Shown here one piece after another: positions 4,942-23,544 of a stretch of 38,810 nucleotides of DNA. The notes beneath the pieces are model-generated. The model was given only the letters and a program-made list of their open reading frames with translations. It searched no databases and was not told where the DNA came from. Where the stretch lies: the sequence record NC_027387.1. The stretch is one strand, 5' to 3'. Both the position numbers and the translations under genes were made by a program. Numbering within the stretch: position 1 is the first letter of the stretch; each line of letters begins with the position of its first letter. The DNA is from Escherichia phage CICC 80001.

Positions 4942-5031
4942 AGCCTACCTAAAGATTACTATAAGACTTAAAGTGTCCTATAAGGTAGGTTGTTATTATT
5001 GTTAATACAACCAACATAAAGGAGGAGACTC

Positions 5032-5181
5032 ATGTTCCGCTTATTGTTGAACCTACTGCGGCATAGAGTCACCTATCGCTTTCTTGTGGTACTTTGTGCT
5101 GCCCTTGGGTACGCATCTCTTAATGGAGACCTCAGTTCACTGGAGTCTGCCGTTTGCTCTTTACTCACTTGTAGTGATTAA
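5032..5181 (+). CDS. 19.5: gp19.5 small hydrophobic protein
   Basis: 49 aa MFRLLLNLLRHRVTYRFLVVLCAALGYASL..., matches T7 gp19.5; GGAGGAG RBS; below the 60-aa cutoff of the ORF track. Confidence 0.85.
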   Translation: MFRLLLNLLRHRVTYRFLVVLCAALGYASLNGDLSSLESAVCSLLTCSD

Positions 5182-5422
5182 GGTCTTCCTGACCGACTGA
5201 GGGCTCACCGAGGGATTCAGCGGTATGATTACATCACACCACTTCATCCCTATAGAGTCAAGTCCTAAGGTATACCCATAAAGAGCCTCTAATGGTCTAT
5301 CCGTAAGGTCTATACCTAAAGATAGGCCATCCTATCAGTGGAACCTAAAGAGGGTCTTAGAGAGGGCCTGAGGAGTTCCTAGAGGGTCCTTTAAAATATA
5401 CCATAAAAATCTGAGTGACTAT

Positions 5423-5569
5423 CTCACAGTTTAAGAACCCAAAGTTCCCCCCATAGGGGTCCCTAAATCCCAGCCAATCACCTAAAGTCAACCGAAGGTT
5501 GACCTTGAGGGTTCCCTGGGGTTGGGGATGACCCTTTGGGTGTTACCTTGAGTGTCTCTCTGTGCCCCT
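5423..5569. repeat. Terminal repeat homologue (single copy in this permuted sequence); physical genome ends expected here
   Basis: Begins TCTCACAGT as the T7 left end does, ends ...GTGTCTCTCTGTGCCCCT; preceded by ...ATCTGAGTGACTATC as at the T7 right junction; boundaries approximate. Confidence 0.55.
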
Positions 5570-5750
5570 ACCTGTTAAAGCCTCCTAAAGTCACCTCCTA
5601 AGGTCATTCCTACCGTCTACAGCCTAAAGACTACACTTAAAGACCCATTCAGTCAATCCCTATCTTAAAGATATTCTAAAGACCATCCTAAAGCCTATTC
5701 CTAAAGATGCCTTGTTGTTACCTATAAAGAGATTATCTTTAATCATTGTC
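5570..5750. repeat. Array of short CTAAAG/TAAAG-containing repeats next to the terminal repeat
   Basis: Repeated CCTAAAG-like heptamers every 12-20 bp, as at the T7 left end. Confidence 0.6.
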
Positions 5751-5752
5751 TT

Positions 5753-5775
5753 TAATACAACTCACTATAGGGAGA
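5753..5775 (+). promoter_or_regulatory. T7-type promoter (phiOL-equivalent)
   Basis: TAATACAACTCACTATAGGGAGA. Confidence 0.85.
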
Positions 5776-5828
5776 GACTACTTAAAGAGGACCAAAGAGA
5801 GATTAATCAAAATAATTTAAAAAGAGTA

Positions 5829-5864
5829 TTGACTTAAAGAGTCCTACCGGTTACTATTCACCTC
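5829..5864 (+). promoter_or_regulatory. Host sigma70 early promoter A1
   Basis: TTGACT, 17-bp spacer, TACTAT; positional match to T7 A1. Confidence 0.75.
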
Positions 5865-5955
5865 GTCAACGGGACAACGGCCTAAAACCACTCCCTGAGA
5901 TACCGGGGTCAACCGGATAAGTAGACAGCCTGATAAGTCATACGAAAAACAGGCA

Positions 5956-5992
5956 TTGACAACACGAAGTAACATGCAGTAAGATACACAGC
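5956..5992 (+). promoter_or_regulatory. Host sigma70 early promoter A2
   Basis: TTGACA, 18-bp spacer, TAAGAT; matches T7 A2. Confidence 0.8.
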
Positions 5993-6062
5993 GTCAACAC
6001 GGTAGCACGGTGTCTTCTAGGTGACTTAAGCGCACCACGGCACATAAGGTGAAACAAAACGG

Positions 6063-6098
6063 TTGACAACATGCAGTAAACACGGTACGATGTACCAC
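6063..6098 (+). promoter_or_regulatory. Host sigma70 early promoter A3
   Basis: TTGACA, 17-bp spacer, TACGAT; matches T7 A3. Confidence 0.8.
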
Positions 6099-6209
6099 AA
6101 GCAGTAAGGGTGTAGGGATAGGAACCGAGAAACCTGCCCGTGACCCGCCAAGGATAAGGCACTAGCCATGAGTCGAATTCGGTCACTCATCGCATAAAAG
6201 AATAACAGG

Positions 6210-6245
6210 TTGACAGCCTCCTTTAAAAGCTGTAAGATGTACCAC
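6210..6245 (+). promoter_or_regulatory. Additional consensus-like sigma70 promoter (fourth in the tandem early array)
   Basis: TTGACA, 17-bp spacer, TAAGAT, then GTACCAC as downstream of A3. Confidence 0.6.
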
Positions 6246-6425
6246 GAAATGACGGAACAGTGAGTCACCACACTGAAAGGTGATGCGGTCTGACGAAACC
6301 TGACCAAAGACGCTCTTTAACAATCTGGTAAACGGCTCTTGAGTGTACACACGTAGCGGATAACCCAAGGGTATCGCAAGGTGCCCTTTATGATATCCAC
6401 TAACAACACTATGAGGTAACACACA

Positions 6426-6776
6426 ATGGCTATGTCTAACATGACTTACAACAACGTTTTTGATCACGCTTACGAAATGCTGAAAGAAAACACCCGTTAT
6501 GATGACATCCGTGACACTGATGACCTGCACGATGCAGTACACATGGCAGCCGATAGCGCCGTTCCGCACTATTACAGCGACGTTTTCAGCGTAATGGCAA
6601 GCGAGGGCATTGACCTTGAGTTTGAGGATTCTGGTCTGATGCCGGACACCAAGGACGTAATCCGTATCCTGCAAGCGCGTATCTATGAGCAATTAACGAT
6701 TGACCTCTGGGAAGACACTGAGGACTTACTGAACGAGTACCTTGAGGAAGTCGAAGAGTACGAGGAGGAAGAGTAA
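6426..6776 (+). CDS. 0.3: Ocr (gp0.3) DNA-mimic anti-restriction protein
   Basis: 116 aa [22 protein letters not shown]..., highly acidic, near-identical to T7 Ocr. Confidence 0.97.
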
Positions 6777-6928
6777 TGGCTAACAACGTACAATACGGTC
6801 TGACCGCTCAAACTGTACTGTTCTATAGTGACATGGTGCGCTGTGGCTTTGATTGGTCGCTCGCAATGGCACACCTTAAGGAACTGTACGAAAACAACAA
6901 GGCAATAGCCTTGAAGTCTGCTGAGTGA
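6776..6928 (+). CDS. 0.4: gp0.4 homologue
   Basis: 50 aa [32 protein letters not shown]..., matches T7 gp0.4; TAATG overlap with 0.3. Confidence 0.8.
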   Translation: MANNVQYGLTAQTVLFYSDMVRCGFDWSLAMAHLKELYENNKAIALKSAE

Positions 6929-6978
6929 TAGGCTCAAGGTCGCTCAATATGAGTGGCCTTTATGATTATCACTTTAAC
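6929..6978 (+). promoter_or_regulatory. RNase III-type hairpin (extra copy of the R0.5-like site)
   Basis: GGCTCAAGGTCGCTCAATATGAGTGGCCTTTATGATTATCACTTTAAC, paralogous to the site at 7246..7300. Confidence 0.5.
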
Positions 6979-6997
6979 ATGTAATAGGACTAACACC

Positions 6998-7198
6998 ATG
7001 AGTAAACTTCTGGCAACATCTAAAATCAAAGGTCAATGCACTGTAACACTGCGAGAGTATGATCACGGGGCAATGGGTAGCACCTACGTTGTGCGATACG
7101 GTAAACAAGTCACCCAATGGGTGAACGAGGTTTTGGCACAAGAAGAATACCAAGCCTGCGTGATACACCAAGCAACATGTGCAGGCTGGAATGACTGA
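6998..7198 (+). CDS. Hypothetical early protein (66 aa), no T7 counterpart at this position
   Basis: ATG at 6998 with AGGA 8 nt upstream; ORF MSKLLATSKIKGQCTVTLREYDHG...; between genes 0.4 and 0.5, flanked by two RNase III-like hairpins; listed ORF 6953..7198 trimmed to the Met outside the hairpin. Confidence 0.55.
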   Translation: MSKLLATSKIKGQCTVTLREYDHGAMGSTYVVRYGKQVTQWVNEVLAQEEYQACVIHQATCAGWND

Positions 7199-7245
7199 TG
7201 GCGCTATTTGTACGCACTGGATACTAACCTTCGAGTCCACCCAGT

Positions 7246-7300
7246 GATAAACTCAAGGTCGCTCCTAGCGAGTGGCCTTTATGATTATCACTTTACTTAC
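7246..7300 (+). promoter_or_regulatory. RNase III processing site (R0.5-equivalent)
   Basis: AAACTCAAGGTCGCTCCTAGCGAGTGGCCTTTATGATTATCACTTTAC, matches T7 R0.5. Confidence 0.6.
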
Positions 7301-7307
7301 GGGAATA

Positions 7308-7442
7308 ATGTATATGCTTACTATCGGTCTACTCACCGCTCTGGGTCTAGCTGTAGGCGCATCCTTTGGGAAGTCCTTAGGCGTAGCTGTAGGCGCTTAC
7401 TTGGTCGCTTGTATCATTACGGGAGCACTGCGCAAATGCTGA
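7308..7442 (+). CDS. 0.5: gp0.5 small membrane protein homologue
   Basis: 44 aa MYMLTIGLLTALGLAVGASFGK..., matches T7 gp0.5. Confidence 0.7.
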   Translation: MYMLTIGLLTALGLAVGASFGKSLGVAVGAYLVACIITGALRKC

Positions 7443-7573
7443 AACACTACGTTATGCCTATCCACACCAAGAACGGTGCTACAGTTTGCACACCTGATGG
7501 CTTCGCAATGAAACAACGAATCGAACGCCTTAAGCGTGAACTGCGCACCAATCGCAAGCTCAACAATATCTAA
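7436..7573 (+). CDS. 0.6: gp0.6 homologue
   Basis: 45 aa MLKHYVMPIHTKNGATVCTPDGFAMKQRIERLKRELR..., matches T7 gp0.6A N-terminus. Confidence 0.7.
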   Translation: MLKHYVMPIHTKNGATVCTPDGFAMKQRIERLKRELRTNRKLNNI

Positions 7574-7591
7574 TCACATTAACACTGGAGA

Positions 7592-8680
7592 ATGCACAAA
7601 GTGAACGCTATCGACATCATGAACACTATCGACGCAATCAAAGCACTGCCAATCTGTGAACTTGATAAGCGTCAAGGTATGCTCATTGATTTGCTGGTTG
7701 AGATGGTCAACAGCGAAACGTGTGACGGTGAGATCACCAAGCTGGACAAGCCGCTTGAATTCCAAGACTGGTGGACTACCTTAAAGTGCTTGACTGCGGA
7801 CTCTGGATTTATGATGCTTGGTAATGGGCACTTCTCGGCTGCTTATAGCCACCCGCTGCTGCCTAACAGGGTGATTAAGGTGGGCTTTAAGAAAGAGGAC
7901 TCAGGCGCTGCGTATACCGCATTCTGCCGCATGTATCAGGGTCGCGCTGGTATCCCTAACGTCTACGATGTACAGCGTCACGCTGGATGCTATACGGTGG
8001 TATTGGATGCACTGAATGATTGCGAGCGTTTCGACAACGATGAGCATTATAAATACGCTGAGATTGCAAGCGACATCATTGACTACAAATCCAATGAGCA
8101 CGATATGTTAACTGGGTGGGATGGCGAGTTCGTCGAGACTTGTAAGCTAATCCGCAAGTTCTTTGAGGGCATCGCTTCGTTCGACATGCACAGCGGGAAC
8201 ATCATGTTCAGCGACGATGATACGCCGTTCATTACCGACCCTGTATCGTTCTCGCAGCAGAAAGACGGTGGCGCATTCAGTATTGACCCTGAGGAACTCA
8301 TCAAGGAAGTCGAGGAGGTCGCACACCAGAGAGCAATCGACCGCGCTAAGGAACGTAAAGCACGTCATGTGGGTCGAGTGGAGGCACGTAAAGTAAAGCG
8401 CCGTAACCGTAAGGCACGTAAAGCACACCAAGAGAAGCACAAGCGAATGGTTGCTACGTGGCGTATGGATGAGCGTCAAGAACGACGTAACCATGAGGTA
8501 GCTGTAGATGTGCTGGGAAGGACCAATAACGCTATGCTCTGGGTTAACATGTCCGCTGGGGACTTTAAGGCTCTTGAGGAACGAATTGCGGCGCACTGGT
8601 TTCAAGCTGACCGAATGGCTATCGCTAACGGTCTTCCGCTCAACATCGACAAGCAACTTGACGCAATGCTAATGGGCTGA
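7592..8680 (+). CDS. 0.7: gp0.7 serine/threonine protein kinase and host transcription shutoff protein
   Basis: 362-aa ORF, high similarity to T7 gp0.7; true start may be GTG at 7601, which aligns with the T7 N-terminus. Confidence 0.93.
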
Positions 8681-8754
8681 TAGTCTTATCTTACAGGTCA
8701 TCTGACTGAGGGTGGCCTGAATAGATACGATTTACTAACTGGAAGAGGCACTAA

Positions 8755-11406
8755 ATGAACACGATTAACATCGCTAAGAACGACTTCTCTGACATCGAAC
8801 TGGCTGCTATCCCGTTCAACACTCTGGCTGACCATTACGGTGAGCGTTTGGCTCGCGAACAGTTGGCCCTTGAGCATGAGTCTTACGAGATGGGTGAAGC
8901 ACGTTTCCGCAAGATGTTTGAGCGTCAACTTAAAGCTGGTGAGGTTGCGGATAACGCTGCCGCTAAGCCCCTCATTACTACCCTTCTCCCTAAGATGATT
9001 GCACGCATCAACGACTGGTTTGAGGTAGTGAAAGCTAAGCGCGGCAAACGCCCGACAGCCTTCCAGTTCCTGCAAGAAATCAAGCCGGAAGCTGTAGCGT
9101 ACATCACCATTAAGACCACTCTTGCTTGCCTAACCAGTGCGGACAATACAACCGTTCAGGCTGTAGCAAGCGCAATCGGTCGGGCCATTGAGGATGAGTC
9201 GCGCTTCGGTCGCATCCGTGACCTTGAAGCTAAGCACTTCAAGAAAAACGTTGAGGAACAACTAAACAAGCGTGTAGGGCACGTCTATAGGAAAGCATTC
9301 ATGCAGGTTGTCGAAGCTGACATGCTCTCTAAGGGTCTAATGGGCGGCGAGGCGTGGTCTTCGTGGCATAAGGAAGACTCCATTCACGTAGGGGTTCGCT
9401 GCATTGAGATGCTCATTGAGTCCACCGGAATGGTTAGCTTGCACCGCCAAAATGCTGGCGTAGTAGGCCAAGACTCTGAGACTATCGAACTCGCACCGGA
9501 ATACGCTGAGGCTATCGCAACACGGGCTGGGGCACTGGCTGGCATTTCCCCAATGTTCCAGCCTTGCGTAGTCCCTCCTAAGCCTTGGACTGGCATTACT
9601 GGGGGTGGCTATTGGGCTAACGGTCGCCGTCCTCTGGCGCTGGTGCGCACTCACAGTAAGAAAGCACTGATGCGCTACGAAGATGTTTACATGCCTGAGG
9701 TGTACAAGGCGATTAACATTGCGCAAAACACCGCATGGAAAATCAACAAGAAAGTCCTAGCGGTCGCCAACGTAATCACCAAGTGGAAGCACTGCCCTGT
9801 AGAGGACATCCCAGCGATTGAACGTGAAGAACTCCCAATGAAACCGGAAGACATCGACACGAATCCTGAGGCACTCACCGCGTGGAAACGTGCTGCTGCC
9901 GCTGTGTACCGCAAGGACAAGGCTCGCAAGTCTCGCCGTATCAGCCTTGAGTTCATGCTTGAGCAAGCCAACAAGTTCGCTAACCATAAGTCCATCTGGT
10001 TCCCTTACAACATGGACTGGCGCGGTCGTGTTTACGCTGTGTCAATGTTCAACCCGCAAGGTAACGACATGACCAAGGGTCTGCTGACACTGGCTAAAGG
10101 AAAACCAATCGGTAAAGAAGGTTACTACTGGCTGAAAATCCACGGTGCAAACTGCGCTGGAGTCGATAAGGTTCCGTTCCCTGAGCGCATCAAGTTCATT
10201 GAGGACAACCACGAGAACATCATGGCTTGCGCTAAGTCTCCTCTGGAGAACACTTGGTGGGCTGAGCAAGATTCTCCGTTCTGCTTCCTCGCGTTCTGCT
10301 TTGAGTACGCTGGGGTACAGCACCACGGTCTGAGCTACAACTGCTCACTGCCACTGGCGTTCGATGGGTCTTGCTCCGGTATTCAGCACTTCTCAGCGAT
10401 GCTCCGCGATGAGGTGGGTGGTCTTGCTGTTAACCTGCTGCCTAGTGAAACCGTTCAGGACATCTACGGGATTGTCGCTAAGAAAGTCAACGTGATTCTG
10501 CAAGAGGATGTAATCAACGGGACCGACAACGAAGTAGTTACCGTGACCGATGAGAACACTGGTGAAATCTCTGAGAAAGTCAAGCTGGGTACTAAGGCAC
10601 TGGCTGGTCAATGGCTGGCTTACGGTGTAACTCGTAGCGTGACTAAGCGTTCAGTCATGACGCTGGCCTATGGTTCCAAAGAGTTCGGATTCCGTCAGCA
10701 AGTCCTTGAGGACACCATACAGCCCGCTATTGATTCCGGTAAAGGTCTGATGTTTACTCAACCAAATCAGGCTGCTGGTTACATGGCTAAACTGATTTGG
10801 GAAGCTGTTAGCGTCACAGTGGTGGCTGCGGTTGAAGCAATGAACTGGCTCAAGTCTGCTGCTAAGCTGCTGGCTGCTGAGGTCAAAGATAAGAAGACTG
10901 GAGAGATTCTTCGCAAGCGTTGCGCTGTACACTGGGTAACTCCTGATGGCTTCCCTGTATGGCAGGAATACAAGAAGCCCATCCAGACTCGCTTGAACCT
11001 GATTTTCCTCGGTCAGTTCCGTCTACAGCCTACCATTAACACAAACAAGGATAGCGAGATTGACGCGCACAAGCAGGAGTCCGGCATAGCTCCTAACTTT
11101 GTGCATAGCCAAGATGGTAGCCACCTGCGTAAGACTGTAGTGTGGGCACACGAGAAGTACGGAATCGAATCGTTTGCATTGATTCACGACTCCTTCGGGA
11201 CAATTCCTGCTGACGCTGCCAACCTGTTCAAAGCTGTGCGCGAAACTATGGTTGACACCTATGAGTCTTGTGATGTACTGGCTGACTTCTACGACCAGTT
11301 CGCTGACCAGTTGCATGAGTCTCAATTGGACAAAATGCCAGCACTTCCGGCTAAAGGTAACTTGAATCTCCAAGACATCCTTAAGTCAGACTTCGCGTTC
11401 GCGTAA
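8755..11406 (+). CDS. 1: T7-type single-subunit DNA-dependent RNA polymerase
   Basis: 883 aa MNTINIAKNDFSDIELAAIPFNTLADHYGERLAREQLALEHESYEMGEARFRKMFERQLKAGEVADNAAAKPLITTLLPKMIARINDWFE... ending ...FAFA; essentially T7 RNAP. Confidence 0.99.
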   Translation: MNTINIAKNDFSDIELAAIPFNTLADHYGERLAREQLALEHESYEMGEARFRKMFERQLKAGEVADNAAAKPLITTLLPKMIARINDWFEVVKAKRGKRPTAFQFLQEIKPEAVAYITIKTTLACLTSADNTTVQAVASAIGRAIEDESRFGRIRDLEAKHFKKNVEEQLNKRVGHVYRKAFMQVVEADMLSKGLMGGEAWSSWHKEDSIHVGVRCIEMLIESTGMVSLHRQNAGVVGQDSETIELAPEYAEAIATRAGALAGISPMFQPCVVPPKPWTGITGGGYWANGRRPLALVRTHSKKALMRYEDVYMPEVYKAINIAQNTAWKINKKVLAVANVITKWKHCPVEDIPAIEREELPMKPEDIDTNPEALTAWKRAAAAVYRKDKARKSRRISLEFMLEQANKFANHKSIWFPYNMDWRGRVYAVSMFNPQGNDMTKGLLTLAKGKPIGKEGYYWLKIHGANCAGVDKVPFPERIKFIEDNHENIMACAKSPLENTWWAEQDSPFCFLAFCFEYAGVQHHGLSYNCSLPLAFDGSCSGIQHFSAMLRDEVGGLAVNLLPSETVQDIYGIVAKKVNVILQEDVINGTDNEVVTVTDENTGEISEKVKLGTKALAGQWLAYGVTRSVTKRSVMTLAYGSKEFGFRQQVLEDTIQPAIDSGKGLMFTQPNQAAGYMAKLIWEAVSVTVVAAVEAMNWLKSAAKLLAAEVKDKKTGEILRKRCAVHWVTPDGFPVWQEYKKPIQTRLNLIFLGQFRLQPTINTNKDSEIDAHKQESGIAPNFVHSQDGSHLRKTVVWAHEKYGIESFALIHDSFGTIPADAANLFKAVRETMVDTYESCDVLADFYDQFADQLHESQLDKMPALPAKGNLNLQDILKSDFAFA

Positions 11407-11414
11407 CGTCAAAT

Positions 11415-11437
11415 TAATACGACTCACTATAGAGGGA
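11415..11437 (+). promoter_or_regulatory. T7-type promoter phi1.1A
   Basis: TAATACGACTCACTATAGAGGGA. Confidence 0.85.
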
Positions 11438-11480
11438 CAAACTCAAGGTCATTCGCAAGAGTGGCCTTTATGATTGACCT
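11438..11480 (+). promoter_or_regulatory. RNase III processing site (R1.1-equivalent)
   Basis: CAAACTCAAGGTCATTCGCAAGAGTGGCCTTTATGATTGACC hairpin. Confidence 0.55.
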
Positions 11481-11502
11481 TCTTCCGGTTAATACGACTC
11501 AC
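11480..11502 (+). promoter_or_regulatory. T7-type promoter phi1.1B
   Basis: TAATACGACTCACTATAGGAGAA. Confidence 0.85.
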
Positions 11503-11590
11503 TATAGGAGAACCTTAAGGTTTAACTTTAAGACCCTTAAGTGTTAATTAGAGATTTAAATTAAAGAATTACTAAGAGAGGACTTTAAGT
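11503..11590 (+). promoter_or_regulatory. AT-rich region downstream of phi1.1A/B, corresponding to the T7 primary origin of replication
   Basis: AT-rich TTAATTAGAGATTTAAATTAAAGAATTACTAAG following the paired promoters, as at the T7 origin. Confidence 0.45.
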
Positions 11591-11719
11591 ATGCGTAACT
11601 TCGAAAAGATGACCAAACGTTCTAACCGTAACGCTCATGGCTTCGAGGAAACCAAAGGTCGCAAGTTTAATAAACCATTACGCACCCGTGCTCATAAACG
11701 CTTCTGGGAGGGTCAGTAA
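11591..11719 (+). CDS. 1.1: gp1.1 small basic protein
   Basis: 42 aa MRNFEKMTKRSNRNAHGFEETKGRKFNKPLRTRAHKRFWEGQ, matches T7 gp1.1. Confidence 0.8.
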   Translation: MRNFEKMTKRSNRNAHGFEETKGRKFNKPLRTRAHKRFWEGQ

Positions 11720-11720
11720 G

Positions 11721-11972
11721 ATGGGCCGTTTATATAGTGGGAACCTGAATGTCTTCAAGGCTGCTTGCAACAGGCTCTACCAGTTGGACCTTGCTGTTAT
11801 AGTTGTTGAGAAGGAAGGTTCACCAAACATAAAGGCGACCATGTACCTTCGGATTGAAGACCGTACTGGTCGCATAGTTGTTCAGGAGGAGATTCACCAC
11901 TGCGACGAAGACGTTCTGTACAATATGGGAACCGCCTGGCTGAACCGTATGTACGACCAGTTGAAGCACTAG
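11721..11972 (+). CDS. 1.2: gp1.2 host dGTPase inhibitor
   Basis: 83 aa MGRLYSGNL...DEDVLYNMGTAWLNRMYDQLKH, matches T7 gp1.2; listed ORF 11637..11972 trimmed to the conserved Met. Confidence 0.85.
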   Translation: MGRLYSGNLNVFKAACNRLYQLDLAVIVVEKEGSPNIKATMYLRIEDRTGRIVVQEEIHHCDEDVLYNMGTAWLNRMYDQLKH

Positions 11973-11975
11973 AAG

Positions 11976-11998
11976 TAATACGACTCAGTATAGGGACA
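11976..11998 (+). promoter_or_regulatory. T7-type promoter phi1.3
   Basis: TAATACGACTCAGTATAGGGACA followed by an RNase III-type hairpin. Confidence 0.8.
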
Positions 11999-12056
11999 AT
12001 GCTTAAGGTCGCTCATTGAGTGGCCTTAGTCATTTAACCGATAGGAGATAAACATT

Positions 12057-13078
12057 ATGATGAACATTAAGACCAACCCATTTAAAGCCGTGTCTTTCGT
12101 AGAGTCTGCCATTAAGAAGGCTCTGGATAACGCTGGGTATCTTATCGCCGACATCAAGTATGATGGTGTACGTGGGAACATCTGCGTAGACAATACCGCT
12201 AACAGTTGCTGGCTCTCTCGTGTATCTAAAACGATTCCGGCACTGGAGCACCTAAACGGATTCGATGCACGCTGGAAGCGCCTTCTGAATGATGACCGTT
12301 GCTTCTACAAAGATGGCTTTATGCTTGATGTAGAACTCATGGTCAAGGGAGTAGACTTCAACACTGGGTCTGGCCTACTGCGCACCAAATGGACTGACAC
12401 GAAGAACCAAGAGTTCCACGAAGAGTTATTCGTTGAACCAGTCCGTAAGAAAGACAAGGTTCCCTTTAAGCTGCACACTGGACACCTTCACGTCAAACTG
12501 TACGCTATCATCCCTCTGCACATCGTGGAGTCTGGAGAAGACTGCGATGTCATGACGTTACTCATGCAGGAACACGTTAAGAACATGCTGCCTCTGCTAC
12601 AGGAATACTTCCCTGAAATCGAATGGCAAGCGGCTGAGTCTTACGAGTCTACGACATGGTTGAACTACAGCAACTGTACGAGAAGAAGCGTGAAGAAGGA
12701 CATGAGGGTCTCATTGTGAAAGACCCGATGTGTATCTATAAGCGCGGTAAGAAGTCCGGCTGGTGGAAACTTAAGCCAGAGAACGAAGCAGACGGCATCA
12801 TTCAGGGTCTTGTATGGGGAACCGAAGGTTTAGCGAATGAGGACAAAGTAATCGGATTTGAGGTGCTTCTTGAGAGTGGTCGTGTAGTTAACGCCACAAA
12901 CATCTCTCGCACCTTAATGGATGAATTTACAAACACAGTTAACATTGAAGGTGAAACATACTACAACGGGCACGCTTGCCAGATTGCGTACATGGAGGAA
13001 ACACCTGACGGCTCTCTGCGTCACCCATCGCTCGTAATGTTCCGTGGCACCGAGGATAACCCTCAAGAGAAAATGTAA
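12057..13078 (+). pseudogene. 1.3: ATP-dependent DNA ligase gene 1.3, split by a -1 frameshift near 12647/12648
   Basis: ORF 12057..12719 encodes the ligase N-terminal part (adenylation motif KYDGVRG); ORF 12656..13078 in the +1 frame encodes the C-terminal part (MVELQQLYE...HEGLIVKDP...RHPSLVMFRGTEDNPQEKM); one G missing relative to T7 ...TACGAGGTCTACGA... Confidence 0.75.
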
Positions 13079-13084
13079 CCATAC

Positions 13085-13113
13085 TGGCTCACCTTCGGGT
13101 GGGCCTTTCTGCG
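13085..13113 (+). terminator. Early (host RNA polymerase) terminator TE
   Basis: GGCTCACC-TTCG-GGTGGGCC stem-loop followed by TTTCTGCGTTT; same position as T7 TE after the ligase gene. Confidence 0.8.
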
Positions 13114-13115
13114 TT

Positions 13116-13138
13116 TAATACGACTCACTAAAGGAGGT
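13116..13138 (+). promoter_or_regulatory. T7-type promoter phi1.5
   Basis: TAATACGACTCACTAAAGGAGGT. Confidence 0.85.
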
Positions 13139-13145
13139 ACACATC

Positions 13146-13235
13146 ATGATGTACGTAATGCCATTGCTAATCATCATCATAGGATGCCTTGCGCTCACCT
13201 GTAGCGATGACGATATGCCAGATGGTCACGCTTAA
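13146..13235 (+). CDS. 1.5: gp1.5 small protein
   Basis: 29 aa MMYVMPLLIIIIGCLALTCSDDDMPDGHA, matches T7 gp1.5. Confidence 0.7.
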   Translation: MMYVMPLLIIIIGCLALTCSDDDMPDGHA

Positions 13236-13255
13236 TACGACTCACTAAAGGAGAC
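13233..13255 (+). promoter_or_regulatory. T7-type promoter phi1.6
   Basis: TAATACGACTCACTAAAGGAGAC. Confidence 0.85.
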
Positions 13256-13260
13256 ACTAT

Positions 13261-13520
13261 ATGTTCAGACTTCACTTCAACAAAAGTCTTAAGAATTTCA
13301 CGGTTCGCCGTGCTGACCGTTCAATCGTATGTGCGAGCGAGCGCAGAGCTAAGTTACCTCTTATTGGTGACACAGTTCCTTTGGCACCGAGCGTCCACAT
13401 CATTATCACTCGTGGTGACTTCGAGAAAGCAATAGACAAGAAACGTCCGGTTCTTAGTGTGGCAGTGACCCGCTTCCCGTTCGTCAGTCTGTTACTCAAA
13501 CGAATCAAGGAGGTGTTCTG

Positions 13521-13521
<1 letters not shown>
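13261..13521 (+). CDS. 1.6: gp1.6 homologue
   Basis: 86 aa [31 protein letters not shown]..., matches T7 gp1.6. Confidence 0.9.
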
Positions 13522-14143
<622 letters not shown>

Positions 14144-14146
<3 letters not shown>

Positions 14147-14166
14147 TACGACTCACTATTAGGGAG
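14144..14166 (+). promoter_or_regulatory. T7-type promoter phi2.5
   Basis: TAATACGACTCACTATTAGGGAG. Confidence 0.8.
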
Positions 14167-14215
14167 GGAAGACTCCCTCTGAGAAACTAAACGAAACCTA
14201 AAGGAGATTAACATT

Positions 14216-14914
14216 ATGGCTAAGAAGATTTTCACCTCTGCGCTGGGTACTGCTGAACCTTACGCTTACATCGGTAAGCCGGACTACGGTAACGAAGAGC
14301 GTGGCTTTGGGAACCCTCGTGGTGTATACAAAGTTGACCTGACTATTCCCAACAAAGACCCGCGCTGCCAACGTATGGTCGATGAAATCGTGAAGTGTCA
14401 CGAAGAGGCTTATGCTGCTGCCGTTGAGGAATATGAAGCGAACCCGCCTGCTGTAGCTCGTGGTAAGAAACCGCTGAAACCGTATGAAGGCGACATGCCG
14501 TTCTTCGATAACGGTGACGGCACGACTACCTTTAAGTTCAAATGCTACGCGTCTTTCCAAGACAAGAAGACCAAAGAGACCAAGCACATCAATCTGGTTG
14601 TGGTTGACTCCAAAGGTAAGAAGATTGAAGACGTTCCGATTATCGGTGGTGGCTCTAAACTGAAAGTCAAATACTCGCTGGTCCCGTACAAGTGGAACAC
14701 TGCTGTAGGCGCGAGCGTTAAGCTGCAACTGGAATCCGTAATGCTGGTCGAACTGGCTACCTTTGGTGGCGGTGAAGACGATTGGGCTGACGAAGTTGAA
14801 GAGAACGGCTATGTTGCCTCTGGTTCTGCCAAAGCGAGCAAACCACGCGACGAAGAAAGCTGGGACGAAGACGACGAAGAGTCCTACGAAGAAGACGAAG
14901 ACGGAGACTTCTAA
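14216..14914 (+). CDS. 2.5: gp2.5 single-stranded DNA-binding protein
   Basis: 232 aa with acidic C-terminal tail ending DEDGDF; near-identical to T7 gp2.5. Confidence 0.97.
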   Translation: MAKKIFTSALGTAEPYAYIGKPDYGNEERGFGNPRGVYKVDLTIPNKDPRCQRMVDEIVKCHEEAYAAAVEEYEANPPAVARGKKPLKPYEGDMPFFDNGDGTTTFKFKCYASFQDKKTKETKHINLVVVDSKGKKIEDVPIIGGGSKLKVKYSLVPYKWNTAVGASVKLQLESVMLVELATFGGGEDDWADEVEENGYVASGSAKASKPRDEESWDEDDEESYEEDEDGDF

Positions 14915-15370
14915 GTGGCTGGCGCATACGCTGCGCGTGGTATCCGAAAGGTCGGGACATTCCGTTCCGGCCTAGAAGATAAGGTCTCTAAGCAGCTAGA
15001 GGGTAAGGGTATTAAGTTCGACTATGAACTGTGGAAAATCCCTTACGTTGTCCCTGCGAGCAACCATGTGTATACTCCAGACTTCCTGCTGCCTAACGGA
15101 ATCTTCATTGAAACCAAAGGTTTATGGGAGAGTGACGACCGAAAGAAACACTTATTGATTCGCGAACAGTTTCCCGAACTGGACATCCGTCTGGTGTTCT
15201 CAAGCTCGCGCACCAAGCTGTACAAAGGGTCTCCGACCAGTTACGGTGAGTGGTGTGAGAAGCACGGTATCCTGTTTGCTGACAAATTAATTCCTGTGGA
15301 ATGGCTCAAAGAACCCAAAAAGGAGGTGCCATTTGACAAGCTGAAACAATCGAAGGGAGGTAAGAAATAA
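14915..15370 (+). CDS. 3: gp3 endonuclease I (Holliday junction resolvase)
   Basis: 151 aa, GTG start directly after the gp2.5 stop; GIRKVG...YTPDFLLPNGIFIETKGLWESDDRKKHLL matches T7 gp3. Confidence 0.93.
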   Translation: MAGAYAARGIRKVGTFRSGLEDKVSKQLEGKGIKFDYELWKIPYVVPASNHVYTPDFLLPNGIFIETKGLWESDDRKKHLLIREQFPELDIRLVFSSSRTKLYKGSPTSYGEWCEKHGILFADKLIPVEWLKEPKKEVPFDKLKQSKGGKK

Positions 15371-15825
15371 TGTCTCGTGTACAGTTCAAACAACGTGAAT
15401 CCACTGACGCAATCTTTGTTCACTGCTCGGCTACCAAGTCAAGTCAGAATGTGGGTGTCCGTGAGATTCGCCAGTGGCACAAAGAGCAGGGTTGGCTTGA
15501 CGTGGGATACCACTACATTATCAAGCGCGATGGTACTGTGGAGGAAGGCCGAGACGAGATGGCTGTTGGTTCTCACGCCAAGGGTCACAACCATAACTCA
15601 ATCGGTGTCTGCCTCGTTGGTGGCATTGACGATAAAGGTAAGTTCGAAGCTAACTTTACGCCAGCCCAAATGCAATCCCTTCGCTCACTGCTTGTCACAC
15701 TACTGGCTAAGTACGAAGGTTCTGTTCTTCGCGCACATCATGATGTGGCACCAAAGGCTTGCCCATCGTTCGACCTTAAGCGTTGGTGGGAGAAGAACGA
15801 ACTGGTCACTTCTGACCGTGGATAA
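15370..15825 (+). CDS. 3.5: gp3.5 lysozyme (N-acetylmuramoyl-L-alanine amidase) and RNA polymerase inhibitor
   Basis: 151 aa MSRVQFKQRESTDAIFVHCSATK..., near-identical to T7 lysozyme. Confidence 0.97.
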   Translation: MSRVQFKQRESTDAIFVHCSATKSSQNVGVREIRQWHKEQGWLDVGYHYIIKRDGTVEEGRDEMAVGSHAKGHNHNSIGVCLVGGIDDKGKFEANFTPAQMQSLRSLLVTLLAKYEGSVLRAHHDVAPKACPSFDLKRWWEKNELVTSDRG

Positions 15826-15826
15826 T

Positions 15827-15849
15827 TAATTGAACTCACTAAAGGGAGA
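15827..15849 (+). promoter_or_regulatory. T7-type promoter (phi3.8-equivalent), here directly upstream of gene 4
   Basis: TAATTGAACTCACTAAAGGGAGA followed by GACCACAACGGTTTCCC hairpin. Confidence 0.85.
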
Positions 15850-15881
15850 CCACAACGGTTTCCCTTTGTTCGCATTGTTGA

Positions 15882-17655
<1,774 letters not shown>

Positions 17656-17658
<3 letters not shown>

Positions 17659-17678
17659 TACGACTCACTAAAGGAGAC
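17656..17678 (+). promoter_or_regulatory. T7-type promoter phi4.3
   Basis: TAATACGACTCACTAAAGGAGAC. Confidence 0.85.
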
Positions 17679-17683
17679 ACATC

Positions 17684-17896
17684 ATGTTCAAACTGATTAA
17701 GAAGTTAGGCCAACTTCTGGTTCGTATGTACAACGTGGAAGCCAAGCGTCTGAACGATGAGGCTCGTAAAGAGGCCACACAGTCACGCGCTCTGGCGATT
17801 CGCTCCAACGAACTGGCTGACAGTGCATCCACTAAAGTTACAGAAGCTGCCCGTGTAGCCAACCAAGCTCAACAGCTTTCCAAATTCTTTGAGTAA
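17684..17896 (+). CDS. 4.3: gp4.3 homologue
   Basis: 70 aa MFKLIKKLGQLLVRMYNVEAKRLNDEARKE..., matches T7 gp4.3. Confidence 0.9.
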   Translation: MFKLIKKLGQLLVRMYNVEAKRLNDEARKEATQSRALAIRSNELADSASTKVTEAARVANQAQQLSKFFE

Positions 17897-17915
17897 TCAA
17901 ACAGGAGAAACCATC

Positions 17916-18185
17916 ATGTCTAACGTAGCTGAAACTATCCGTCTATCCGATACCGCTGACCAGTGGAACCGTCGAGTCCACATCAACGTTCGCAACGGTA
18001 AGGCGACTATGGTTTACCGCTGGAAGGACTCTAAGTCCTCTAAGAATCACACTCAGCGTATGACGTTGACTGACGAGCAAGTACTGCGTCTGGTCAATGC
18101 GCTTACCAAAGCTGCCGTGACCGCAATTCATGAGGCTGGTCGCGTTGATGAAGCTATGGCTATCCTCGACAAGATTGATAGCTAA
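17916..18185 (+). CDS. 4.5: gp4.5 homologue
   Basis: 89 aa MSNVAETIRLSDTADQWNRRVHINVRNGKATMVYRWK..., matches T7 gp4.5; listed ORF 17889..18185 trimmed to the Met after AGGAGA. Confidence 0.85.
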   Translation: MSNVAETIRLSDTADQWNRRVHINVRNGKATMVYRWKDSKSSKNHTQRMTLTDEQVLRLVNALTKAAVTAIHEAGRVDEAMAILDKIDS

Positions 18186-18187
18186 GA

Positions 18188-18225
18188 GTGGTATACTCAA
18201 GGTCGCCCAAGTGGTGGCCTTCATG
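18188..18225 (+). promoter_or_regulatory. RNase III processing site (R4.7-equivalent)
   Basis: GTGGTATACTCAAGGTCGCCCAAGTGGTGGCCTTCATG hairpin. Confidence 0.5.
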
Positions 18226-18229
18226 AATA

Positions 18230-18252
18230 CTATTAGACTCACTATAGGAGAT
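18230..18252 (+). promoter_or_regulatory. T7-type promoter phi4.7
   Basis: CTATTAGACTCACTATAGGAGAT. Confidence 0.75.
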
Positions 18253-18258
18253 ATTACC

Positions 18259-18666
18259 ATGCGTGACCCTAAAGTTATCCAAGCAGAAATCGCTAAACTG
18301 GAAGCTGAACTCGAAGACGTTAAGTACCATGAAGCCAAGACTCGCTCCGCTGTTCACATTTTGAAGAACTTAGGGTGGACTTGGACACGACAGACTGGCT
18401 GGGAGAAACCAGAAGTTTCCAATCTGAGCCACAAGGTGTTCGATAAGGACACTATGACCCACATCAAGGCTGGTGATTGGGTGAAGGTGGATATGGGAGT
18501 TGTTGGTGGATATGGATATGTCCGCTCTGTAAACAATAAATATGCACAGGTGTCTTATATCACTGGCATTACACCACGATATGCTATTGTCGCTGATAAG
18601 ACCAACATGGTTCACACAGGCTTCTTGACAGTTGTCTCGTATGAAGAGATTATTAAGTCGCGATAA
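18259..18666 (+). CDS. 4.7: gp4.7 homologue
   Basis: 135 aa MRDPKVIQAEIAKLEAELEDVKYHEAKTRSAVHILKNLGW..., matches T7 gp4.7. Confidence 0.9.
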   Translation: MRDPKVIQAEIAKLEAELEDVKYHEAKTRSAVHILKNLGWTWTRQTGWEKPEVSNLSHKVFDKDTMTHIKAGDWVKVDMGVVGGYGYVRSVNNKYAQVSYITGITPRYAIVADKTNMVHTGFLTVVSYEEIIKSR

Positions 18667-18684
18667 TCAATAGGAGAAATCAAT

Positions 18685-20841
18685 ATGATCGTTTCTGACA
18701 TCGAAGCTAACGCCCTCTTAGAGAGCGTCACTAAGTTCCACTGCGGGGTTATCTACGACTACTCCACCGCTGAGTACGTAAGCTACCGTCCGAGTGACTT
18801 CGGTGCGTATCTGGATGCGCTGGAAGCCGAGGTTGCACGAGGCGGTCTTATTGTGTTCCACAACGGTCACAAGTATGACGTTCCCGCATTGACCAAACTG
18901 GCTAAGTTACAGCTTAACCGTGAGTTCCATCTACCCCGCGAGAATTGTATCGACACCCTTGTGTTGTCACGTTTGATTCACTCCAACCTGAAAGACACCG
19001 ATATGGGTCTGCTGCGTTCCGGTAAGTTGCCCGGTAAACGCTTTGGGTCTCACGCTTTGGAGGCGTGGGGTTATCGCTTAGGCGAAATGAAAGGTGAATA
19101 CAAGGATGACTTTAAGCGTATGCTTGAAGAGCAGGGTGAAGAATACGTTGATGGAATGGAGTGGTGGAACTTCAACGAAGAGATGATGGACTATAACGTT
19201 CAGGATGTTGTGGTCACTAAGGCTCTCCTTGAGAAGCTACTCTCTGATAAACATTACTTCCCTCCTGAGATTGACTTTACGGACGTAGGATACACTACGT
19301 TCTGGTCAGAATCCCTTGAGGCCGTTGACGTTGAACATCGCGCTGCATGGCTACTCGCTAAGCAAGAGCGCAATGGATTCCCGTTTGACACGAAAGCAAT
19401 CGAAGAGTTGTACGTAGAGTTAGCTGCTCGCCGCTCTGAGTTGCTCCGTAAACTTACCGAAACGTTCGGCTCATGGTATCAACCTAAGGGTGGCACCGAA
19501 ATGTTCTGCCATCCGAGGACTGGTAAGCCATTGCCTAAATACCCTCGCATTAAGACACCTAAAGTTGGTGGCATATTTAAGAAGCCTAAGAACAAGGCAC
19601 AGCGAGAAGGCCGTGAGCCTTGCGAACTTGACACCCGCGAGTACGTTGCTGGTGCCACATATACTCCGGTAGAGCACGTAGTGTTTAACCCTTCTTCCCG
19701 TGACCACATTCAGAAGAAACTTCAAGAGGCTGGATGGGTCCCGACTAAGTACACCGATAAAGGTGCACCTGTGGTGGACGATGAGGTCCTAGAGGTAGTA
19801 AAAGTAGATGACCCTGAGAAGCAAGCCGCTATCGACCTTATTAAAGAATACTTGATGATTCAGAAGAGAATCGGACAGTCTGCTGAGGGAGACAAGGCAT
19901 GGCTTCGTTACGTTGCTGAGGATGGTAAAATTCATGGTTCTGTTAACCCCAATGGTGCTGTTACTGGGCGCGCTACTCACGCTTTCCCTAACCTCGCACA
20001 GATACCCGGTGTCCGCTCTCCTTATGGTGATCGGTGCCGCGCTGCTTTTGGCGCTGAACATCACCTAGATGGACTCACAGGTAAGCCTTGGGTTCAGGCT
20101 GGTATAGACGCCTCAGGTCTGGAGTTGCGCTGCTTGGCACACTTCATGGCTCGCTTTGACAACGGTGAGTATGCTCACGAGATTCTCAATGGTGACATTC
20201 ACTGGAAGAATGCAATTGCTACTGACTTAGCACCAAACGTTGCCCGTGATAAACACAATAAGGAACACGACCTAATGCGAGATAACGCCAAGACGTTTAT
20301 CTATGGGTTCCTCTATGGTGCTGGAGATGAGAAGACTGGGCAGATTGTCGGTGCTGGTAAAGAGCGCGGTAAGGAACTCAAGAAGAAATTCCTTGAGAAC
20401 ACCCCTGCGATTGCGGCACTCCGAGAGTCTATCCAACAGACACTTGTTGAGTCCTCTCAGTGGGTAGCTGGTGAACAGCAAGTCAAGTGGAAACGTCGCT
20501 GGATTAAAGGTCTGGATGGTCGTAAGGTACACGTCCGTAGTCCTCACGCTGCCCTGAATACCCTACTGCAATCCGCTGGTGCGCTTATCTGCAAACTGTG
20601 GATTATCAAGACCGAAGAGATGCTCGTAGAGAAAGGCTTGAAGCATGGCTGGGATGGGGACTTTGCGTACATGGCTTGGGTACACGATGAAATCCAAGTC
20701 GGTTGCCGTACCGAAGAGATTGCTCAGTTGGTCATTGAGACCGCACAAGAAGCAATGCGCTGGGTTGGAGACCACTGGAACTTCCGGTGTCTTCTGGATA
20801 CCGAAGGTAAGATGGGTCCTAACTGGGCAGTATGTCACTAA
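18685..20841 (+). CDS. 5: gp5 DNA polymerase (family A, with 3'-5' exonuclease domain)
   Basis: 718 aa, near-identical to T7 gp5 except a roughly 14-aa insertion encoded around 20224..20280. Confidence 0.97.
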
Positions 20842-20860
20842 TTCTATAGGAGAAATTATT

Positions 20861-21160
20861 ATGGCTATGACAAAGAAATTTAAAGTGTCCTTCGACGTTA
20901 CCGCTAAGATGGTATCTGACGTTCAGGTAATCTTAGAGAAAGATATGCTGCACTTATGTAAGCAGGTTGGCTCCGGTGCGATTGTCCCCAATGGTAAACA
21001 GAAGGAAATGATTGTCCAGTTCCTGACACATGGCATGGAAGGCTTGATGACGTTCGTGGTACGTACAGCATTCCGTGAGGCAATCAAGGACATGCACGAA
21101 GAGTATGCCGATAAGGACTCCTTCAAACTCTCTCCTGCAACAGTACGGGAGGTGTTCTGA
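20861..21160 (+). CDS. 5.5: gp5.5 H-NS-binding protein
   Basis: 99 aa MAMTKKFKVSFDVTAKMVSDVQVILEKDMLHLCKQ..., near-identical to T7 gp5.5. Confidence 0.93.
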   Translation: MAMTKKFKVSFDVTAKMVSDVQVILEKDMLHLCKQVGSGAIVPNGKQKEMIVQFLTHGMEGLMTFVVRTAFREAIKDMHEEYADKDSFKLSPATVREVF

Positions 21161-21369
21161 TGTCTGACTATCTGAAAGTATTGCAAGCAATCAAAAGTTG
21201 CCCTAAGACTTTCCAGTCCAACTATGTACGGAACAACGCGAGCCTCGTAGCGGAGGCCGCTTCCCGTGGTCACATATCTTGCCTGACCACTAGTGGACGC
21301 AACGGTGGCGCTTGGGAAATTACAGCTTCCGGTACTCGCTTTCTGAAACGAATGGGAGGGTGTGTCTGA
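21160..21369 (+). CDS. 5.7: gp5.7 homologue
   Basis: 69 aa MSDYLKVLQAIKSCPKTFQSNYVRNNASLVAEAASRGH..., matches T7 gp5.7. Confidence 0.93.
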   Translation: MSDYLKVLQAIKSCPKTFQSNYVRNNASLVAEAASRGHISCLTTSGRNGGAWEITASGTRFLKRMGGCV

Positions 21370-21527
21370 TGGTTCGTGACACTGTAACAATTCCTCGTGA
21401 TGCGTGGAACGATATGCAGGGCTACATCGACTCTCTGGAACGTGAGAACGATAGCCTTAAGAACCAACTTATGGAAGCTGACGAGTACGTGGCTGAACTA
21501 GAGGAGAAACTTAATGGCACTTCTTGA
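21369..21527 (+). CDS. 5.9: gp5.9 RecBCD inhibitor homologue
   Basis: 52 aa MVRDTVTIPRDAWNDMQGYIDSLERENDSLKNQLMEADEYVAELEEKLNGTS, matches T7 gp5.9. Confidence 0.85.
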   Translation: MVRDTVTIPRDAWNDMQGYIDSLERENDSLKNQLMEADEYVAELEEKLNGTS

Positions 21528-22416
21528 CCTTAAACAATTCTATGAGTTACGTGAAGGCTGTGACGACAAAGGTATCCTTGTGATGGACGGTGACTGGCTG
21601 GTCTTCCAAGCTATGAGTGCTGCTGAGTTTGATGCCTCATGGGAGGAAGAGATTTGGCACCGCTGCTGTGACCACGCTAAGGCCCGTCAGATTCTTGAGG
21701 ATTCCATCAAGTCCTATGAGACCCGTAAGAAGGCTTGGGTAGGTGCTCCGATTGTCCTTGCGTTCACAGATAGTGTCAACTGGCGCAAAGAACTGGTGGA
21801 CCCTAACTATAAGGCTAACCGTAAGGCGTCGAAGAAACCTGTAGGTTACTTTGAGTTCCTTGAGGCTCTCTTTGAGCGCGAAGAGTTCTACTGCATTCGC
21901 GAGCCGATGCTTGAGGGTGATGACGTTATGGGATTGATTGCTTCCAATCCGTCTGCCTTCGGTGCCCGTAAAGCTGTAATCATCTCGTGCGATAAGGACT
22001 TTAAGACCATCCCTAATTGCGACTTCCTGTGGTGTACCACTGGTAACATCCTGACTCAGACCGAAGAGTCCGCTGACTGGTGGCACCTCTTCCAGACCAT
22101 CAAAGGTGACATTACCGATGGTTACTCTGGGATTGCCGGATGGGGCGATACTGCCGAGGACTTCTTGAATAACCCGTTCATTACCGAGCCTAAAACGTCT
22201 GTACTTAAGTCTGGGAAGAACAAAGGCCAAGAGGTAACTAAGTGGATTAAACGTGACCCTGAGCCGCATGAGACGCTCTGGGACTGCATTAAGTCCATCG
22301 GTGCAAAGGCAGGTATGACCGAAGAGGATGTTATCAAGCAGGCACAGATGGCTCGCATCCTGCGGTTCAATGAGTACAACTTTATTGACAAGGAGATTTA
22401 CCTGTGGAGACCGTAG
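21514..22416 (+). CDS. 6: gp6 5'-3' exonuclease
   Basis: 300 aa MALLDLKQFYELREGCDDKGILVMDGDWLVFQAM..., near-identical to T7 gp6. Confidence 0.97.
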   Translation: MALLDLKQFYELREGCDDKGILVMDGDWLVFQAMSAAEFDASWEEEIWHRCCDHAKARQILEDSIKSYETRKKAWVGAPIVLAFTDSVNWRKELVDPNYKANRKASKKPVGYFEFLEALFEREEFYCIREPMLEGDDVMGLIASNPSAFGARKAVIISCDKDFKTIPNCDFLWCTTGNILTQTEESADWWHLFQTIKGDITDGYSGIAGWGDTAEDFLNNPFITEPKTSVLKSGKNKGQEVTKWIKRDPEPHETLWDCIKSIGAKAGMTEEDVIKQAQMARILRFNEYNFIDKEIYLWRP

Positions 22417-22517
22417 CATATATTAGTATTGGTCTTTGTGTCCTCGGAATGTGCCTCATTACGTGGGGCCTTTGGGACTTAGCCAGGATAATCAAGGCGT
22501 TACAAGACTCTAAGTGA
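22404..22517 (+). CDS. 6.3: gp6.3 small hydrophobic protein
   Basis: GTG start 8 nt after AAGGAG; 37 aa ...AYISIGLCVLGMCLITWGLWDLARIIKALQDSK, matches T7 gp6.3. Confidence 0.6.
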   Translation: METVAYISIGLCVLGMCLITWGLWDLARIIKALQDSK

Positions 22518-22537
22518 TAAACTCAAGGTCCCTAAAT

Positions 22538-22560
22538 TAATACGACTCACTATAGGGAGA
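22538..22560 (+). promoter_or_regulatory. T7-type promoter phi6.5, embedded in an RNase III hairpin
   Basis: TAATACGACTCACTATAGGGAGA flanked by ACTCAAGGTCCC...GGGGCCTTTATGATTATTAC. Confidence 0.9.
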
Positions 22561-22614
22561 TAGGGGCCTTTATGATTATTACTTTAAGATTTAACTCTAA
22601 GAGGAATCTTTATC

Positions 22615-22869
22615 ATGTTAACACCTATTAACCAATTACTTAAGAACCCTAACGATATTCCAGACGTGCCTCGTGCAACTGCTGAGTATCTACAGGTTCG
22701 ATTCAACTATGCGTACCTCGAAGCGTCTGGTCATATAGGACTTATGCGTGCTAATGGTTGCAGTGAGGCCCACATCTTGGGTTTCATTCAGGGCCTCCAG
22801 TATGCCTCTAACGTCATTGACGAGATTGAGTTACGCAAGGAACAACTGAGAGATGATGGGGAGGATTGA
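22615..22869 (+). CDS. 6.5: gp6.5 homologue
   Basis: 84 aa [40 protein letters not shown]..., matches T7 gp6.5. Confidence 0.93.
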
Positions 22870-22873
22870 CACT

Positions 22874-23541: not shown

Positions 23542-23544
23542 GTT

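Follow-up and report, generated by a model that had tools for sequence, protein, structure and literature searches.

The locus considered here lies in a phage of the T7/T3 group (Studiervirinae), in which early genes and the processing of their transcripts provide the closest points of comparison. Processing of early T7 mRNA was reportedly described by Dunn and Studier, and we take the RNase III cuts in T7 to fall at nucleotides 890 and 1468, each 8 nt into a conserved core. Several small early proteins of T7 act on host proteins: gp0.4 on FtsZ and gp0.6 on MreB, both encoded in the class I region, and, later in the early phase, gp2 on RNA polymerase and gp5.9 on RecBCD. The order of genes and processing sites is 0.4-R0.5-0.5 in T7 and 0.3-R0.5-0.6 in T3, and neither phage has gene 0.45, the subject of this analysis; this is probably why functional work on the gene was not found. 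The record of phiYeO3-12 does contain an ORF named 0.45, and annotates the hairpin 5' of it as 'putative RNase III site R0.45'. The name gp0.45 is also used in the records of phiSG-JL2 and 13a. A further system of interest is found in T4-type phages, where conserved regulatory stem-loops called PeSLs, composite promoter-plus-terminator motifs, flank small variable early ORFs, and where indels and replacements between close relatives map to these elements (Arbiol et al., 2010, PMC2839356; Comeau et al., 2014, PMC4122927).

The genome of Escherichia phage CICC 80001 (NC_027387.1), all 38,810 nt of which constitute the window analysed here, is T7-like and circularly permuted relative to T7. Early promoters begin at about 5830-6240, which would put the terminal repeat and the physical ends of the genome upstream of there, inside the window. 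The early region runs from host-type promoters through an R0.3-type hairpin, ocr, 0.4, a hairpin, a 66-codon ORF and a second hairpin to 0.5, 0.6 and 0.7, with the RNA polymerase gene at 8755, 3' of genes 0.5-0.7. The host-type promoters A1-A3 (5956-6238) are represented by three sigma-70 promoters scoring 10/12, at 5956, 6063 and 6210, and no promoter-like site was found on the + strand within the cassette (6900-7300). The R0.3-type hairpin (6347-6406) is 5' of ocr (6426-6776; Pfam PF08684, E 3e-61). Gene 0.4, the left neighbour of the cassette (6776..6928, + strand), encodes 50 aa with 94% identity to T7 gp0.4, and its stop codon is part of the upstream hairpin (6923..6974, +), where it falls in the lower stem on the 5' side. 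This hairpin is of RNase III type and equivalent to R0.45 of phiYeO3-12, as indicated by its fold, the repeat, alignments and covariation. A Shine-Dalgarno AGGA (6986..6989, +), 8 nt 5' of the ATG, precedes the ORF itself (6998..7198, +; 66 aa plus stop). Next come a non-coding spacer (7199..7241, +), conserved along with 0.45 in phage nasanit, and the downstream RNase III-type hairpin (7242..7293, +), the equivalent of T7 R0.5 by fold, alignments and covariation. The right neighbour, gene 0.5 (7309..7442, +), encodes a small hydrophobic protein (PHROG 16572); its start was set by alignment to the ATG of T7 0.5.

These observations agree in most respects with a sequence-only reading made earlier, which had described a 66-aa ORF at 6998-7198 between genes 0.4 and 0.5, preceded by a second copy of the R0.5-type hairpin. 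The ORF gives the same translation as quoted there, and both the repeat and the folds were found at the two sites. The hairpins are where that reading had placed them (6929..6978 and 7246..7300), with stems a little wider, at 6923-6974 and 7242-7293. The statement that T7 passes from 0.4 through one hairpin to 0.5 is borne out by the T7 genome, which contains neither the ORF nor a second hairpin. Synteny and the T7 genome likewise bear out the classification of the ORF as an accessory class I gene that has no T7 counterpart.

The ORF is gene 0.45, known as a cassette from the T7/T3 group, and is already catalogued. Its product matches PHROG 6500 over residues 1-66 of 66 (E 5.4e-44), for which the function is given as 'unknown', and tblastn locates the gene in 158 phage records. 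Klebsiella phages account for 72 of these, Escherichia for 23, Yersinia for 13 and Salmonella for 10; Citrobacter, Shigella, Serratia and Pantoea are also represented. The window protein is 85% identical to 0.45 of phiYeO3-12, 89% to gp0.45 of phiSG-JL2 and 69% to gp0.45 of 13a (tblastn), and shares with them its length of 66 aa, the class I location, the upstream hairpin and the ribosome-binding site. The neighbours differ: in CICC 80001, the gene is preceded by a T7-type ocr-0.4 rather than by the SAMase gene, and followed by a second hairpin and a T7-type 0.5, whereas in 13a it stands in front of ocr. Escherichia phage HZ2R8 has a 362-nt segment in common with the window at 97% nucleotide identity, and the ocr-to-0.6 stretch is at least 80% covered in at least 16 records. 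In HZ2R8 and several other records, gene 0.45 has been left unannotated.

The earlier description of the gene as undescribed therefore fails, the name 0.45 being in use in phiYeO3-12, phiSG-JL2 and 13a and the family in PHROG 6500. In these relatives the gene is present and named, and its function is not annotated. The literature searched, of which the original phiYeO3-12 papers were not part, mentions gp0.45 in a single annotation table, and functional data were not found in it. T3 lacks the gene, though its close relative phiYeO3-12 has it, and T3 gp0.6 was considered as a possible homologue and ruled out, the two proteins being unrelated. The hairpin that follows gene 0.3 is called R0.5 in T3 and its homologue R0.45 in phiYeO3-12; the two names thus denote homologous sites.

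Both hairpins are contained in a 71-nt direct repeat (6906-6976 and 7225-7295, 80% identity). Exact identity between the copies extends over runs of 26 and 14 nt, and an 18-nt core, GGCCTTTATGATTATCAC, is found exactly at 6955 and 7274. When up to three mismatches are allowed, this core has three matches in the window, as against 0.01 expected by chance. The two hairpins fold as T7 R0.5 does, the lower stem having 9 bp and the upper 10-11 bp, with an asymmetric internal loop between them. Their fold energies are -24.6 (upstream) and -24.5 kcal/mol (downstream), with z scores of -4.9 and -5.2, and 0 of 200 shuffles were as good. The upstream hairpin has its lower stem at 6923-6931/6966-6974, its upper stem at 6936-6946/6950-6960 and its internal loop at 6961-6965. 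Its 5' side runs on from the T7-type end of gene 0.4, and both its loop (AAUAU) and its 3' flank belong to the type present 5' of 0.45 in the Berlinvirus nasanit. The downstream hairpin, with its internal loop at 7280-7284, has the loop CCUAGC and the 3' flank of the T7 and IME390 R0.5 type. The likeness to T7 R0.3 and R0.5 thus comprises the two-stem hairpin with internal loop, near-identical flanks, ACTCAAGG...CCTTTATGATTATCAC, and, in the downstream copy, the T7 R0.5 loop. The difference lies in number: T7 has one site between 0.4 and 0.5, and CICC 80001 has two, both putative cleavage sites, with a gene between them.

Across 32 R0.3, R0.45 and R0.5 sites, compensatory changes are present in 6 of 14 consensus pairs, which is supportive of the fold and not proof of it, since the sites are interrelated. 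Most of these changes come from the R0.3-type hairpin (6347-6406), which has the flanks ACYCAAGG / CCTTTATGAT in common with the R0.45/R0.5 type and a different upper stem, GGGTATC GCAA GGTGCCC. No T-run is present 3' of either hairpin of the cassette, and an Rfam scan of 5000-12000 at E <= 1 returned no matches, this type of site not being modelled in Rfam. A third hairpin, far downstream at 22515-22590, has matching flanks, GTGATAAACTCAAGGTC...GGCCTTTATGATTATTAC, and in place of the upper part a consensus T7 promoter, TAATACGACTCACTATAGGGAGA. This presumably corresponds to the R6.5/phi6.5 arrangement of T7. This third hairpin reveals the lower stem and internal loop, both conserved, as a reusable module.

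The history of the cassette can be read from its relatives. In its backbone (8755-28000), the genome has about 95% identity with PHB20 and IME390, both of which are without gene 0.45. Compared with IME390 and T7, the window contains a clean insertion of 319 nt with bounds inside the hairpin, and close relatives are without exactly one repeat unit and gene 0.45. Identity to nasanit is about 95% over the tract from about 6923 to 7295, and beyond these limits the sequence is again of T7 type. The hairpin loop switches from nasanit type upstream to T7 type downstream. As the nasanit-like tract ends inside the hairpins, both crossovers are placed within them. The 3' part of the spacer (7225-7241), 5' of the downstream lower stem, resembles the last bases of gene 0.4 (11 of 17 identical), and by this resemblance may be a relic of an older 0.4/R0.5 junction.

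Comparison of 20 loci reveals several gene orders (R, hairpin): R, 0.45, R, ocr-0.4, R in 13a; ocr-0.4, R, an extra 94-aa ORF, R, 0.45, R, 0.5 in EG1; SAMase, R, ocr-0.4, R, 0.45 in P694; and SAMase, R, 0.45, R, 0.6 in nasanit. The 94-aa ORF constitutes a second single-gene cassette bounded by hairpins (1657-1941 in EG1, locus L005; also 1991-2272 in L013 and 1342-1623 in L016), and in one metagenomic phage the EG1-type ORF stands in front of ocr. In Escherichia phage P694 (L009, 1873-3198), SAMase and ocr-0.4 are in tandem with R hairpins between them, followed by 0.45, so that two different anti-restriction genes are present in one early operon. In Przondovirus-type loci of Klebsiella phages, 0.45 begins a few nucleotides after a SAMase-like gene and such a hairpin is missing; the association of the hairpin with 0.45 is thus frequent, not obligatory. 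The suggestion that the gene is carried with its own processing site accordingly holds for CICC 80001, which has two R0.5-type hairpins, and does not extend to the Przondovirus-type loci. Where present, the hairpins seem to have two uses, in RNA processing and as homology through which single-gene cassettes are gained, lost and reshuffled.

In this respect the cassette resembles those at PeSLs: its indels relative to IME390, T7 and nasanit are bounded by a hairpin, and gene orders around it are shuffled. The likeness is one of functional analogy only (Arbiol et al., 2010, PMC2839356; Comeau et al., 2014, PMC4122927). The hairpins of 0.45 are RNase III processing hairpins with neither promoter nor terminator, belong to another phage family and lie outside the PeSL class.

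We propose that gene 0.45 is a cassette processed by RNase III and exchanged via its hairpins, and that its protein is an early binder of a conserved host component; we put the probability of this reading at roughly 0.6. By analogy with established T7 biology, E. coli RNA polymerase would transcribe the cassette from A1-A3 while the genome is still entering the cell. RNase III would then cut once in each hairpin, on the 3' side of the internal loop at about 6963 and 7282, if the positions are homologous to the T7 sites. The cuts would release a monocistronic 0.45 mRNA of about 320 nt, ending in a protective 3' hairpin. In the DNA, the paired hairpins would supply the homology by which phage recombination acquires, loses and moves the cassette. 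Least certain is the step at the level of the protein: most likely, gp0.45 would bind a conserved host component stoichiometrically within minutes of the start of infection, and this component may be a defence factor or a housekeeping protein. Stoichiometric binding of a host component is proposed because other small early proteins of T7 act in this manner. gp0.45 is similar to T7 gp0.4, gp0.6, gp2 and gp5.9 in size (50-70 aa), early expression, dispensability on laboratory hosts and patchy distribution, and is dissimilar in having neither sequence nor confident structural similarity to them.

The position of the gene is in keeping with such a role. Gene 0.45 is in the class I region, between 0.3/0.4 and 0.5/0.6/0.7, with promoters A1-A3 upstream. 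Other Autographiviridae, phiNV3 (2178-2288) and vB_Kp_H01 (1630-1839), have distant homologues (32-54% identity) at the left end of the genome, among the first genes. In these two phages and in two metagenomic podophage contigs, homologues at 32-40% identity occupy second or third place in an early operon; in the contigs the homologue is the second gene in an operon of small ORFs. By position, the family is consistently 'first in, first expressed', which is the one positive argument for a host-directed early function and makes it plausible. T7, T3, IME390 and PHB20 do without the gene, which is hence dispensable on laboratory hosts.

The same position has suggested a more specific reading, in which the gene is an undescribed accessory cistron peculiar to this phage and encodes an anti-defence factor, directed against an RM, BREX, retron or Gabija-type system. 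The gene is close to ocr in the pre-early region, it lies in the block holding ocr or the SAMase gene in every Studiervirinae locus examined, and its distant homologues too are among the first genes of early operons. The first part of this reading is wrong, because the gene is named in public reference records. As to the second, a host-takeover role like that of gp0.4 or gp0.6 fits the position equally well, and similarity to characterised anti-defence proteins was not found. Pfam, NCBIfam and the PDB sequence search yielded no homology to any such protein. A functional screen has identified orf24, in the accessory region of ocr, as a trigger of programmed cell death (Silas et al., bioRxiv 10.1101/2023.04.06.535777). 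This candidate was ruled out as gp0.45: orf24 is a different protein, which starts MFKHEIYTDC, and the motifs of gp0.45 are absent from the supplements of that study. Taken as a whole, the anti-defence reading is rather doubtful.

The profile and structure searches that the sequence-only reading had called for brought to light no relative with a function in Pfam, in NCBIfam or among solved structures. Searches of Pfam, NCBIfam and PADLOC with gp0.45 gave only noise, as did Pfam with the 43 family members. A PDB sequence search with the family profile returned nothing at E <= 10, and Foldseek against the PDB nothing at E <= 0.001, with a best match of E 0.6. Structure matches in BFVD are to uncharacterised proteins of widely differing phages, among them Bordetella phage BB8, the jumbo phages PBECO4 and RaK2 and Pseudomonas phage phiIBB-PF7A. 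An exhaustive profile search yielded 42 representatives at E <= 0.001, nearly all of 60-90 aa, and full-length homologues extend down to about 32% identity in diverse phages.

The AlphaFold2 model of gp0.45 (pLDDT 89.2, pTM 0.74, from an 18-sequence alignment) places strands at residues 2-8, 16-22, 28-34 and 37-41 and a helix at 44-61, with the last three residues disordered. From this model we infer, as one of the least certain of our conclusions, a compact domain of four strands and a helix with a flexible aromatic and acidic C-terminus. Across the alignment of 43 family sequences, Y34, G35 and A47 do not vary, and at least 90% of members conserve V16, V32, C54, H57 and C61. C54, H57 and C61 form a conserved C-x2-H-x3-C stripe, and in most members the helix ends in C-A-G-[WFL], followed by acidic residues. 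A zinc site made of C54, H57 and C61 was considered and is no more than a possibility, because at a spacing of i, i+3, i+7 on one helix the outer two residues are too distant for one ion; the candidate for a fourth ligand, position 14, varies between Y, H, C and F among the members. The periodicity of 3.5 residues (47, 50/51, 54, 57/58, 61) suggests instead a buried face of the helix.

A sheet-plus-helix fold of the AP2, integrase-arm or WGR-like kind could also belong to a nucleic-acid binder, with the end of the entering genome or early transcripts, rather than a host protein, as its target. The charge of gp0.45 is about neutral and its basic residues are not conserved across the wider family, which argues against binding to DNA. 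None of the 43 family members matches PF00847 or PF05406 at E <= 1. We consider nucleic-acid binding improbable.

The profile of gp0.45 also detects four long proteins, each with 4-13 separate matching stretches: P0022 (1700 aa), P0030 (357 aa), P0058 (3076 aa) and P0053 (847 aa). In three of them the match is to the region of strands 2-4 (about residues 8-39), and in P0053 the best stretch corresponds to the helix (41-61). They are probably built of repeats, with a similar beta-hairpin or helix as the unit.

Selection on the gene bears on whether it benefits the phage at all. All 15 alleles taken from the loci have 66 codons, and pairwise comparison of the 15 (Nei-Gojobori) yields medians of 0.084 for dN/dS and 0.62 for dS: purifying selection on the gene is strong. 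Conservation with 0.45 of phiYeO3-12 includes the ribosome-binding stretch ATAGGACTAACACCATG, and a matching Shine-Dalgarno motif has been tabulated for Citrobacter phage SH1 (PMC4925675). At codon 39 (7112-7114), in strand 4 of the protein, the window allele has Q, and the other 14 alleles have H in 13 cases and F in one. A version of 81 aa with a GTG start at 6953 was rejected, since the start is within the hairpin and the extension is not conserved. Public calls of the gene often begin 14-27 codons too early (proteins P0002, P0003, P0009, P0010 and P0001), at a GTG or ATG in the upstream hairpin or beyond it, and so produce 'hypothetical proteins' of 80-93 aa with N-termini that are not conserved.

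The recombinogenic repeats on either side, the patchy occurrence of the gene among close relatives and its absence from T7, T3, IME390 and PHB20 would fit a passenger of no benefit to the phage, kept only because hairpin-mediated recombination spreads the cassette. A neutral gene between direct repeats would soon be deleted, however, and Przondovirus-type loci keep 0.45 without flanking repeats. The low dN/dS, with dS reaching saturation, and a length of 66 codons that is invariant across four phage genera are also contrary to this explanation, which we regard as very improbable. That the reading frame arose by chance, in spacer DNA left by duplication of the hairpin, as the many short ORFs of the six-frame list might suggest, can practically be dismissed in view of the remote full-length homologues, the purifying selection, the conserved ribosome-binding site and the confident fold prediction.

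The reading of gp0.45 as an early binder of a host component, carried on an exchangeable cassette, can be extended to the whole family, though only tentatively. The family may be a broad class of pre-early effectors, ranging from T7-like podophages to jumbo phages, that neutralise a conserved bacterial target in defence or housekeeping. Its members would have in common a minimal domain of four strands and a helix, an invariant YG turn, the C-x2-H-x3-C stripe and an aromatic and acidic tail. The Studiervirinae would trade this effector as a single-gene cassette at RNase III hairpins, as a podophage counterpart of PeSL shuffling in T4.

For annotation, the ORF should be called gp0.45 and the hairpins R0.45 and R0.5, and the gene should not be reported as new. 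Strong selection conserves it in over 150 sequenced phages, whose hosts include Klebsiella, Escherichia, Yersinia and Salmonella and many of which are candidates for therapy, and its place is beside Ocr or SAMase, with the genes that are expressed first. As neither T7 nor T3, the laboratory models, carries it, sixty years of work on T7 genetics have passed it by. CICC 80001 or HZ2R8, which have the gene, and IME390 or PHB20, which are without it, provide a natural isogenic comparison. The most reusable point is that early cassettes of a single gene in Studiervirinae are bounded by RNase III hairpins where gain and loss occur. This pattern provides a simple rule for locating further exchangeable early genes in the subfamily.
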